IMG/VR virus record: IMGVR_UViG_2617270962_000012
Coordinates: 1-41,053 of that record
DNA: 41,053 nucleotides
Source of the DNA: a virus
Taxonomy: Duplodnaviria; Heunggongvirae; Uroviricota; Caudoviricetes
Reading direction: 5' to 3' (one strand)
Part shown: in pieces, positions 11,858 through 12,910 of the stretch
How positions within the stretch are numbered: the first letter of the stretch is position 1
How the letters are laid out: the number at the start of each line of letters is the position of its first letter
Notes under the pieces: generated by a model
Databases searched by the model: none
Told to the model about the DNA's origin: nothing
The model's input: only the letters and a program-made list of their open reading frames with translations
Made by a program: the position numbers and the translations under genes

Positions 11858-12910
11858 ATGAAAAATACTGTAAAAATAAACAGTGTTGATTTAATCAACG
11901 CTGATTGCCTGCATTTTATTCAGTCCCTGCCTGATGATTCCATTGACCTGATTGTTACCGATCCGCCGTACTTCAAGGTGAAACCCAACGGTTGGGACAA
12001 TCAGTGGAAAGGGGACGAAGATTACCTGAAGTGGCTGGACCACTGTCTGGCCCAGTTCTGGCGGGTGCTGAAACCTGCCGGAAGCCTTTACCTGTTCTGT
12101 GGACATCGCCTCGCATCTGATATCGAGATCATGATGCGTGAACGTTTCAACGTTCTTAACCATATTATCTGGGCGAAGCCGTCCGGACGATGGAACGGGT
12201 GTAATAAAGAAAGTCTGCGCGCATATTTTCCCGCAACAGAACGCGTTCTGTTTGCTGAACATTACCAGGGACCATATCGCGGCAAAAGTGACGACTATGC
12301 GGCAAAAGAAAGTCAACTCAAACAGCACATAATGGCACCGCTGATTTCGTATTTCAGGGATGCTCGTGCCGAACTGGGTATAACGGCAAAACAGATTGCC
12401 GAAGCCACTGGTAAGAAAAATATGGTTTCCCACTGGTTTGGTGCCAGTCAGTGGCAGTTGCCGAATGAGGCTGACTACCGGAAGTTGCAGGCACTGTTTT
12501 CCCGTATAGCGGCAGAGAAGTTTCAGGAACAACAACTGGAACAACCACACCACCAGCTGGTGGCATCTTATGATTCACTGAATCGCAAATATTCTGAATT
12601 GCTGGATGAGTTTAAAACTCTCCGGCGCTATTTCTCCGTATCAGTTTCCGTGCCTTATACCGACGTCTGGACGCATAAACCCGTTCAGTTCTACCCGGGT
12701 AAACATCCGTGTGAGAAGCCTGCGGATATGCTCCGGCAAATAATCAGTGCCAGTAGTCGACCAGGCGATCTGGTTGCTGATTTCTTTATGGGATCCGGTT
12801 CCACAATAAAAGCGGCAATGGCGCTGGGGCGTCGGGCGTTAGGTGTTGAACTTGAGTCAGAGCGGTTTAATCAGACGGTGAAAGAGGTAAGTGAACTGGT
12901 GGGGAAATAA
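11858..12910 (+). CDS. orphan DNA methyltransferase (beta-class, N6A/N4C type)
   Basis: N-terminal 'DPPY' (motif IV) and C-terminal 'FFMGSGST' (motif I SAM-binding); no adjacent restriction endonuclease. Confidence 0.75.
   Translation: MKNTVKINSVDLINADCLHFIQSLPDDSIDLIVTDPPYFKVKPNGWDNQWKGDEDYLKWLDHCLAQFWRVLKPAGSLYLFCGHRLASDIEIMMRERFNVLNHIIWAKPSGRWNGCNKESLRAYFPATERVLFAEHYQGPYRGKSDDYAAKESQLKQHIMAPLISYFRDARAELGITAKQIAEATGKKNMVSHWFGASQWQLPNEADYRKLQALFSRIAAEKFQEQQLEQPHHQLVASYDSLNRKYSELLDEFKTLRRYFSVSVSVPYTDVWTHKPVQFYPGKHPCEKPADMLRQIISASSRPGDLVADFFMGSGSTIKAAMALGRRALGVELESERFNQTVKEVSELVGK

Follow-up and report, generated by a model that had tools for sequence, protein, structure and literature searches.

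The gene at positions 11858..12910 (+ strand) of the window, that is, of the whole stretch of 41,053 nucleotides analysed here, encodes a beta-class N6-adenine DNA methyltransferase which, by sequence comparison, is a member of the M.EcoGI/M.EcoGII family. We suggest that this orphan enzyme, which belongs to an SfV-like E. coli prophage integrated at dusA, is silent in the lysogen, depends on the antiterminator Q for its expression and places m6A on progeny DNA without a sequence motif, which would give partial protection from restriction; we consider this reading correct with a probability of about three in four. The gene is real and intact, yet ordinary, since the M.EcoGI/M.EcoGII family has already been characterised and is found in almost half of the complete E. 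coli genomes; the gene itself is already annotated and very common. The methyltransferase being known, the sole thing here that appears to be undescribed is the small ORF and structured leader located upstream of it.

The ORF starts with ATG at 11858, ends with TAA at 12908–12910 and encodes 350 aa. The catalytic motif DPPY occupies aa 35–38 (nt 11960–11971), and the AdoMet-binding motif F-x-G-x-G is found as FMGSG at aa 310–314 (nt 12785–12799), about 270 residues further on. This arrangement, with an N-terminal catalytic motif, a central target-recognition region and a C-terminal AdoMet motif, is the beta-class order. Between the motifs lies a helical target-recognition insert, which covers about aa 146–255 in the AlphaFold model and is given as ~165 aa when read from the motif order. 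The Pfam model PF01555 (N6_N4_Mtase) was matched end to end at aa 29–341 (E = 2.4e-42; 145.8 bits against a cutoff of 26.7), PHROGs gave phrog_67, "DNA methyltransferase" (E = 2e-102), and PADLOC gave MTase_II (E = 1e-151). The assignment to methyltransferases is far beyond chance.

All significant sequence matches in the PDB were beta-class N6A/N4C enzymes (such as M.BceJIV, M.RsrI, M.MboIIA, CcrM and M1.HpyAVI), the best one with E = 2e-24. The AlphaFold model, obtained with 37 homologues, was of moderate quality and presented a split Rossmann core with the helical insert; with this model (mean pLDDT 69) as a Foldseek query against the PDB, 46 of 46 matches at E < 0.01 were beta-class N6A/N4C methyltransferases or Type III Mod subunits. 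The beta-class assignment made in the earlier note from the order of DPPY and FMGSG is therefore borne out by PF01555 and by the fold and sequence matches. That note had also named degenerate catalytic motifs on alignment as a refutation; the catalytic and AdoMet motif residues were invariant in 37 homologues, i.e., not degenerate. The dN/dS ratio of the coding sequence was 0.07 in comparison with SfV and 0.03–0.08 in comparison with more distant copies, for which the synonymous sites were saturated (pS 0.65–0.89); these values indicate strong purifying selection. The alpha-class Dam family (PF02086) was rejected, as the motif order there is reversed (FxGxG first, DPPY last) and PF01555 was the sole Pfam match of the methyltransferase. 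The protein was likewise assigned neither to the YhdJ equivalog (NCBIfam NF008572; 109.8 bits against a cutoff of 292) nor to the CcrM equivalog (NCBIfam NF050803; 67.7 bits against a cutoff of 830).

The window protein shares 282 of 349 residues (81%) with M.EcoGII over the full length, with two one-residue gaps, a value good to about ±1%, the M.EcoGII reference being a machine-read copy with visible reading errors from a supplement (PMC11551740). Residue identity amounts to 89% for the N-terminal core, 78% for the C-terminal core and 77% (60/78) for the target-recognition domain, aa 160–237. Identity to the reconstructed ancestor Anc291 reaches 88% overall and 86% in the target-recognition domain, and identity to another reconstructed ancestor, Anc284/SUPREM, is 70%. 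Both were produced and assayed, and every ancestor in that study proved active on DNA as well as RNA; on DNA, the activity of Anc291 exceeded that of M.EcoGII 2.4-fold, and an RNA motif was absent for M.EcoGII, Anc291 and SUPREM (PMC11551740).

M.EcoGII itself (E. coli O104:H4 C227-11; GenBank EGT69837.1) is a prophage-encoded beta-class enzyme that methylates adenine in any sequence context (Murray et al. 2018, PMC5778455). In vitro, up to 99% of adenines are methylated, and ssDNA, RNA and RNA:DNA hybrids also serve as substrates; the enzyme is unexpressed in its native lysogen, and its overexpression from a plasmid slows cell growth (PMC5778455). Phage 1720a-02 was named in the same work as a carrier of a very similar gene (PMC5778455). 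RT-PCR showed a 99%-identical homologue of M.EcoGI to be silent in the strain EC958, where its methylation signal was also absent (PMC4659465). Both lysogen silence and toxicity on expression have been published for M.EcoGII and for the M.EcoGI-like M.EcoMV (PMC5778455, PMC4659465).

The identity to M.EcoGII, together with the tested members of the cluster that lack a motif, places the window protein well inside a motif-free cluster and suggests the same motif-free adenine methylation for it. The plan of the earlier note to identify "the modified motif" implicitly assumes an orphan methyltransferase that, like phage Dam or P1 Dmt, is site-specific and recognises a defined motif, and we regard this reading as rather unlikely. 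Most PF01555 enzymes are indeed site-specific, and RefSeq names some copies of the gene "site-specific DNA-methyltransferase"; that label, however, is a generic family name, as is the label "DNA adenine methylase" given to homologues in some phage records. In addition, 18 of the 78 residues of the target-recognition domain (23%) differ from M.EcoGII, so that some sequence preference is possible for the window protein. Against this, no motif is associated with M.EcoGII, M.EcoGI (as reported), Anc291 or Anc284 (for the ancestors, an RNA motif is meant), the window protein is nearer to Anc291 than to M.EcoGII, and the nearest relative with proven site specificity, M.PflMI, is 27% identical to M.EcoGII (PMC11551740).

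It should be noted that the absence of a methylation motif attributable to the gene, put forward earlier as a refutation, is not a valid one. M.EcoGII methylates adenine in any context and the window protein is ~81% identical to it, so that the absence of a motif is the expected result. Furthermore, the homologues are silent in lysogens, and therefore a lysogen methylome would probably show nothing. For methylome studies of E. coli lysogens, this means that no motif is to be expected from this gene.

The upstream neighbours of the methyltransferase gene are the gene for antiterminator Q (10511..11263, +; PF03589 Antiterm, E = 9.2e-54) and a 64-aa ORF, and the downstream neighbour is the holin gene (Pfam Phage_holin_3_1, E = 2.8e-27). 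Q is named "antitermination protein" by RefSeq in the prophage of E. coli PD7 and is 100% identical to Q of phage SfV. Based on the RefSeq annotation of the PD7 prophage, the lysis cassette (12988..14321, +) includes genes for holin (12988–13323), endolysin (13327–13803), Rz (13787–14179) and Rz1 (14064–14321). The late-operon position claimed for the methyltransferase thus agrees with its location between Q and the holin/endolysin/Rz genes.

No restriction or defence model from Pfam, PADLOC or PHROGs was matched among the flanking and other nearby ORFs, and no restriction enzyme is listed in the RefSeq annotation of the identical PD7 prophage. The nucleases of the prophage are all ordinary phage ones, namely RusA, a DUF968/HNHc protein, a 3′-5′ exonuclease and an HNH protein beside the terminase. 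Furthermore, the methyltransferase gene keeps its place while its flanks vary: it is followed by lysis genes in SfV and N15, and by tRNAs and stx2 in phiP27, 1720a-02, Stx2a_WGPS2 and an stx-bearing E. coli contig. A tRNA or tRNA remnant in the gap between Q and the methyltransferase gene, as in Stx phages, was not detected by ARAGORN in the window. A Type II restriction-modification system was rejected, given the lack of an adjacent endonuclease gene and the different flanks in the phages that carry the gene. The models, the RefSeq annotation and the varying flanks all support the orphan status asserted in the earlier note.

A putative pR′ promoter (11295..11323, +; TTGCAT-17 nt-TAAGAT) was read from the sequence 30 bases after Q. 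It is a weak consensus match, both hexamers fitting the sigma-70 consensus poorly, and a consensus scan found no + strand promoter after Q; it is proposed because of its position directly after Q and before a strong terminator, and because an analogue is annotated in N15. The strong tR′-like intrinsic terminator (11367..11396, +) consists of a 10-bp hairpin and U7, and a rho-independent terminator is annotated at the same site of SfV. Folding of 11329–11400 gave −24.8 kcal/mol (z = −3.6), and weak Rfam matches to the terminator parts of Leu/Trp leader models were obtained here. The order of Q, promoter and strong terminator is the pR′/tR′ layout of phage lambda, typical of lambdoid late control. 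In N15, −35 and −10 elements and a terminator are annotated before the homologue, and a terminator followed by the holin gene is annotated after it. A second, weak terminator-like hairpin with a U-rich tail (11696..11711, +; −7.7 kcal/mol, z = −1.9) was found by consensus scan at the end of the small ORF, and the alignment presented a hairpin and T-run at the small-ORF end in many homologous loci.

The gap between the methyltransferase and holin genes contains an intrinsic terminator (12918..12943, +), formed by GGCCACG-TTG-CGTGGCC at 12918–12934 plus TTTTTATTT (−12.5 kcal/mol, z = −2.5). The terminator reported earlier after the gene is confirmed by this hairpin and T-run and by the annotation at the same site of SfV; N15 and Ayreon have one in the same relative place. 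Most likely, it stops Q-independent transcription from entering the lysis genes. The description of the gene as stand-alone holds in part: the gene is an orphan without a restriction partner, but a 3′ terminator does not define a stand-alone unit, because Q-modified polymerase reads through terminators. The terminators relevant to silencing are the upstream ones, 11367–11396 and the weaker 11696–11711. Terminators on both sides of the gene fit the published lysogen silence and expression on Q-modified read-through only, and expression of the methyltransferase is accordingly proposed to be Q-dependent.

The methyltransferase is the third part of a conserved module that comprises a 64-aa ORF (11514..11708, +), a leader of ~135 nt (11723..11857, +) and the methyltransferase gene itself. 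The product of the 64-aa ORF matches phrog_331 (E = 3e-33) and is possibly a winged-helix protein: the Pfam model DprA_WH gave a weak match below the cutoff (E = 0.0036), and source names among its 313 homologues are "TrmB family" or "DprA-like winged helix". Its AlphaFold model has a mean pLDDT of 68, with a best PDB fold match at E = 6.7 and no sequence match in the PDB. A homologue of the small ORF is located upstream of the methyltransferase at most of the 80 genome loci and in 98 of 102 viral contigs. Phage 1720a-02 has the same arrangement of small ORF, 150-nt gap and methyltransferase, and the same small ORF and gap also adjoin a methyltransferase identical to M.EcoGII at 323 of 349 positions.

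The leader abuts the methyltransferase start, ends with CUGAUCC-AUG and folds with −58.6 kcal/mol (z = −3.65). Of its five helices, P2 (12 bp) and P3 (6 bp) emerge from a junction closed by P1 (UGGGC/GCCCA), and the hairpins P4 and P5 follow. Across 37 loci that range from Escherichia to Proteus and the telomere phages, the median identity to the window was 86% for the leader vs. 74% for the CDS, whose synonymous sites are saturated, and the leader was the more similar part at 34 of them. With 40 sequences aligned by plain MAFFT, 81.5% of cells were paired under the hand-specified structure vs. at most 48% with the partners slid. Two-sided changes were found at 16 pairs in the plain MAFFT alignment vs. 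8.3 ± 1.6 in shuffles, and none of 500 shuffles reached 16; in the model-fitted alignment, which leans towards the structure, 27 of 36 pairs had such changes vs. 10.4 ± 1.8. The strands of P2, for example, read GGCUGGUGGGUG/CACCUGCCAGCC in the window and GACUGUAAAAGUG/CACCUUUACAGUC in Proteus, and are different again in N15 and PY54. RNAalifold recovered from the plain MAFFT alignment parts of P1, P2 and P4 only, owing to loop indels, and for this reason the hand-specified structure and a covariance model were used.

The covariance model, made from the MAFFT alignment, gave a single strong match per locus in 54 loci, and the end of the match invariably fell at the methyltransferase ATG. The 21-nt leader core AATGGGCGGCTGGTGGGTGTT is present in >120 viral contigs; of 111 usable cases, 107 have the start of a methyltransferase homologue 129–132 nt downstream of it, and the remaining four are remnants of the leader, truncated after P2. 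The Xenorhabdus/Photorhabdus homologues have a different upstream sequence, in which the covariance model finds no leader. No Rfam match for the leader was obtained in the window or in 8 diverse loci. A hidden small protein was rejected, as 17 of the 38 sequences have an internal ORF of 7 aa, and in the rest its length varies from 3 to 44 aa with shifts of frame. A prophage anti-sRNA (AgvB/AsxR) or Pas sRNA was also rejected: these RNAs map to other sites, and no methylase is mentioned in either paper. A pseudoknot between UGUG (5′ of P1) and CACA (the P3 loop) is unsupported: one sequence breaks the pairing, and no real covariation is seen because both motifs are nearly invariant.

There is no canonical Shine-Dalgarno sequence before the methyltransferase ATG, where the conserved CUGAUC(C/U)AUG is found instead. 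This element has its complement in GGAUCA, located immediately before the anti-SD at the 3′ end of 16S rRNA, and it is possible that it acts as an atypical ribosome-binding element. The leader and small ORF may restrain or time the expression of a toxic enzyme. As a more tentative proposal, which we hold to be somewhat short of an even chance, the leader, possibly together with the 64-aa ORF, would be a cis-regulatory RNA, hitherto undescribed, through which translation of the toxic non-specific methyltransferase is gated. The candidate ligands or partners of the leader are the small ORF product, the methyltransferase itself and AdoMet/AdoHcy.

From these data, the following course of events can be proposed for the methyltransferase gene. 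In the lysogen the gene is probably silent, since transcripts starting just after Q would stop at 11367–11396, with a weaker second stop at 11696–11711. After induction, Q would render RNA polymerase terminator-resistant, and the modified polymerase would read through the small ORF, the leader, the methyltransferase gene and the terminator at 12918 and reach the genes for lysis and morphogenesis. The enzyme would then move methyl groups from AdoMet to adenine N6 in phage DNA, both replicating and packaged, and would show little if any sequence preference. In the next host, the progeny DNA would be partly protected from the systems blocked by m6A, i.e., most Type I and Type III and many Type II systems.

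The protection of progeny DNA from host restriction suggested in the earlier note is probably right. The authors who characterised the family and a recent review infer the same function (PMC5778455, PMC11551740, PMC12707154), and the review groups M.EcoGII with Mu Mom as lysogen-silent, toxic modification enzymes (PMC12707154). The anti-restriction benefit to this phage is an expectation from relatives, and even for M.EcoGII the protective role was deduced. Moreover, full methylation is harmful, and DNA of this kind would be a target of m6A-dependent Type IV nucleases. An epigenetic role in the lysogen, also mentioned earlier, is unlikely because this class of enzymes is toxic when expressed.

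A main role other than DNA protection would be the modification of RNA or ssDNA, a late shutdown of the host chromosome or the tuning of late expression or packaging. M.EcoGII is toxic and also acts in vitro on ssDNA, RNA and RNA:DNA hybrids, and the conserved partner ORF and elaborate leader suggest that expression is tightly managed. Orphan phage methyltransferases can, moreover, regulate replication cycles (PMC12707154). However, the DNA activity of M.EcoGII exceeds its RNA activity, and m6A in bacterial mRNA is without a known function, as argued in PMC11551740. In addition, the gene is dispensable in many related phages, and some contigs have a leader remnant alone. A dependence of packaging or regulation on m6A is not known for SfV-like or lambdoid phages. 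We therefore consider a main role of this kind to be unlikely, and protection of progeny DNA by motif-free methylation is preferred.

The DNA of the gene is 100% identical to that of a gene of E. coli PD7 annotated "DNA-methyltransferase". The PD7 copy sits in an SfV-like prophage inserted in dusA, with a lambdoid early region, an HK97-type head and a contractile tail. The prophage of the window contains an IS110-family insertion (ORF 36598–37794); in its PD7 twin there is in addition an IS1, and the annotation marks a tail-fibre gene as partial. At the protein level, identity is 97.7% to SfV orf48 (97.4–98.6% to the genes of SfV, cdtI, mEp460, Ayreon and others), 81–85% to the genes of the Stx2 phages, phiP27 and 1720a-02, and 47–60% to those of N15, PY54, phiKO2, VHML and phiO18P. 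No biochemical characterisation of SfV orf48 or of the mEp460, cdtI and Ayreon homologues was found in the literature. Homologous DNA is present in 2454 of 5426 complete E. coli genomes, at up to 8 places per genome, and the protein search returned 2965 clusters at E ≤ 1e-10. That the gene is an inactive relic in a decaying prophage, as the insertions, the partial tail-fibre gene and the silence of native genes under laboratory growth might suggest, is very improbable in view of the intact frame, the invariant motifs, a dN/dS of ~0.07 even vs. SfV and the near identity to a gene of SfV, a sequenced phage.

The methyltransferase is one more copy of a common enzyme, and the module around it could matter more than the enzyme itself. 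The small ORF and leader provide a testable handle on the means by which phages hold back a toxic, indiscriminate methyltransferase until infection is nearly over. As a reagent for chromatin footprinting, M.EcoGII is in wide use. Natural variants like the window protein, at 81% identity to M.EcoGII and 88% to Anc291, represent a pool of alternative non-specific m6A writers.

Among known systems, the orf48 locus of phage SfV has the same local map, i.e., Q, terminator, orf47, orf48, terminator and then S, R and Rz. SfV orf48 and the mEp460, cdtI and Ayreon homologues, at 97.4–97.7% protein identity, are essentially the same gene as that of the window. M.EcoGII is of the same length class (349 vs. 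350 aa) and has the same beta-class motif order and helical target-recognition insert; both genes are prophage-borne and orphan, and close relatives of M.EcoGII have the same module of small ORF, leader and methyltransferase. The window protein differs from it in 19% of residues, and in 23% of those of the recognition domain. In the M.EcoGII-like phages compared, the gene is located upstream of tRNA or stx genes, whereas in the window and SfV it is directly before the holin gene. The closest solved structures, M.BceJIV, YhdJ, CcrM and M.RsrI, have the catalytic fold in common with the window protein but are 17–23% identical to it, site-specific and without the long helical insert. M.EcoGIX was set aside as a comparison, since the literature shows a plasmid-borne, single-strand-specific methyltransferase, and M.EcoGII is apt instead.

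Phage Mu Mom is an unrelated protein with a different chemistry, carbamoylmethylation, and is controlled differently, by Dam, OxyR and Com. In outline, however, it is like the proposed window enzyme: late, tightly controlled, toxic and lysogen-silent, with broad adenine modification that serves restriction evasion (PMC12707154). The promiscuous adenine methyltransferases of Haemophilus and Neisseria prophages (Drozdz et al., cited in PMC5778455) are phage-derived and of relaxed specificity, as proposed for the window enzyme, but they are alpha-class, with FxGxG first and DPPY last, and thus differ from it in architecture.

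A structured, non-coding leader (11723–11857, plus strand) adjoins the start codon of the methyltransferase gene and folds into five helices, P1 to P5, with compensatory changes. The covariance model built from its alignment matched positions 11711–11860 of the window. A search of Rfam gave no match for the leader. The leader is more conserved than the methyltransferase coding sequence itself and is tightly linked to this gene across the genome and viral contigs. Among the leader homologues, the 5′ strands of helices P1 and P2 hold a nearly invariant AUG (11729–11752 in the window, AUG GGC GGC UGG UGG GUG UUG ...). 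It begins a mini-ORF, MGGWWVL, with two Trp codons side by side. In 17 of the 38 homologues the mini-ORF reaches a stop within the loop of P2; in the window it continues for 33 aa. This mini-ORF may be a chance product of the stem sequence, or else an upstream ORF.

In four viral contigs (L107, L145, L171 and L190), the leader breaks off after P2, and the methyltransferase has given way to AT-rich DNA that carries a small ORF of another kind. These contigs look like recombination scars left by the swapping out of the methyltransferase cassette. Xenorhabdus and Photorhabdus loci (L054–L086) carry methyltransferase homologues of 61–64% identity together with homologues of the 64-aa ORF at 11514–11708. 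The sequence before their ATG differs from the leader, and the leader model detected no leader in these loci; some of them still show a P2-like hairpin, GGCUGGUG...CACCAGCC.

In Enterobacterales prophages, the leader and methyltransferase are almost always preceded by the 64-aa ORF (11514–11708, plus strand; phrog_331, function unknown), which is absent from N15 and PY54. Its product is possibly a winged-helix protein; an AlphaFold model of it had a mean pLDDT of 68 and no PDB fold hit better than E=6.7.

The module of 64-aa ORF, leader and methyltransferase was also found directly 5′ of tRNA genes and stx2AB in several Stx phages, the loci concerned being 1720a-02 (L002), phiP27 (L003), Stx2a_WGPS2 (L008) and a stx-bearing E. 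coli contig (L089). Given this adjacency, the toxin genes and the non-specific methyltransferase appear to share the interval from Q to the lysis genes in these loci.

The prophage right end adjoins dusA and holds the integrase, a DinI-like gene, a transposase of the IS110 family (ISEc20) and a gene of the acyltransferase family (minus-strand intervals 35027–36094, 36598–37794 and 38453–39550). In E. coli PD7, an IS1 insertion of ~777 bp lies between the acyltransferase and ISEc20. The window lacks this IS1, so its source genome is closely related to that of PD7 but distinct from it. The region separating Rz/Rz1 from the HNH/terminase genes contains two minus-strand ORFs (14343–14969 and 15013–15366), which match phrog_12494 and phrog_14397, both of unknown function; neither was matched by Pfam or PADLOC. 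Since SfV has nothing at this site, the two ORFs resemble morons inserted as a pair.

Directly after Q, weak promoter-like hexamers are followed by a region of ~70 nt with a strong terminator at its end (11295–11396, plus strand), an arrangement resembling the pR′/tR′ layout of lambda. If it behaves like the regions that encode 6S RNA in lambda and the sRNA StxS in Stx phages, 11295–11396 would give rise to a short constitutive transcript in lysogens.
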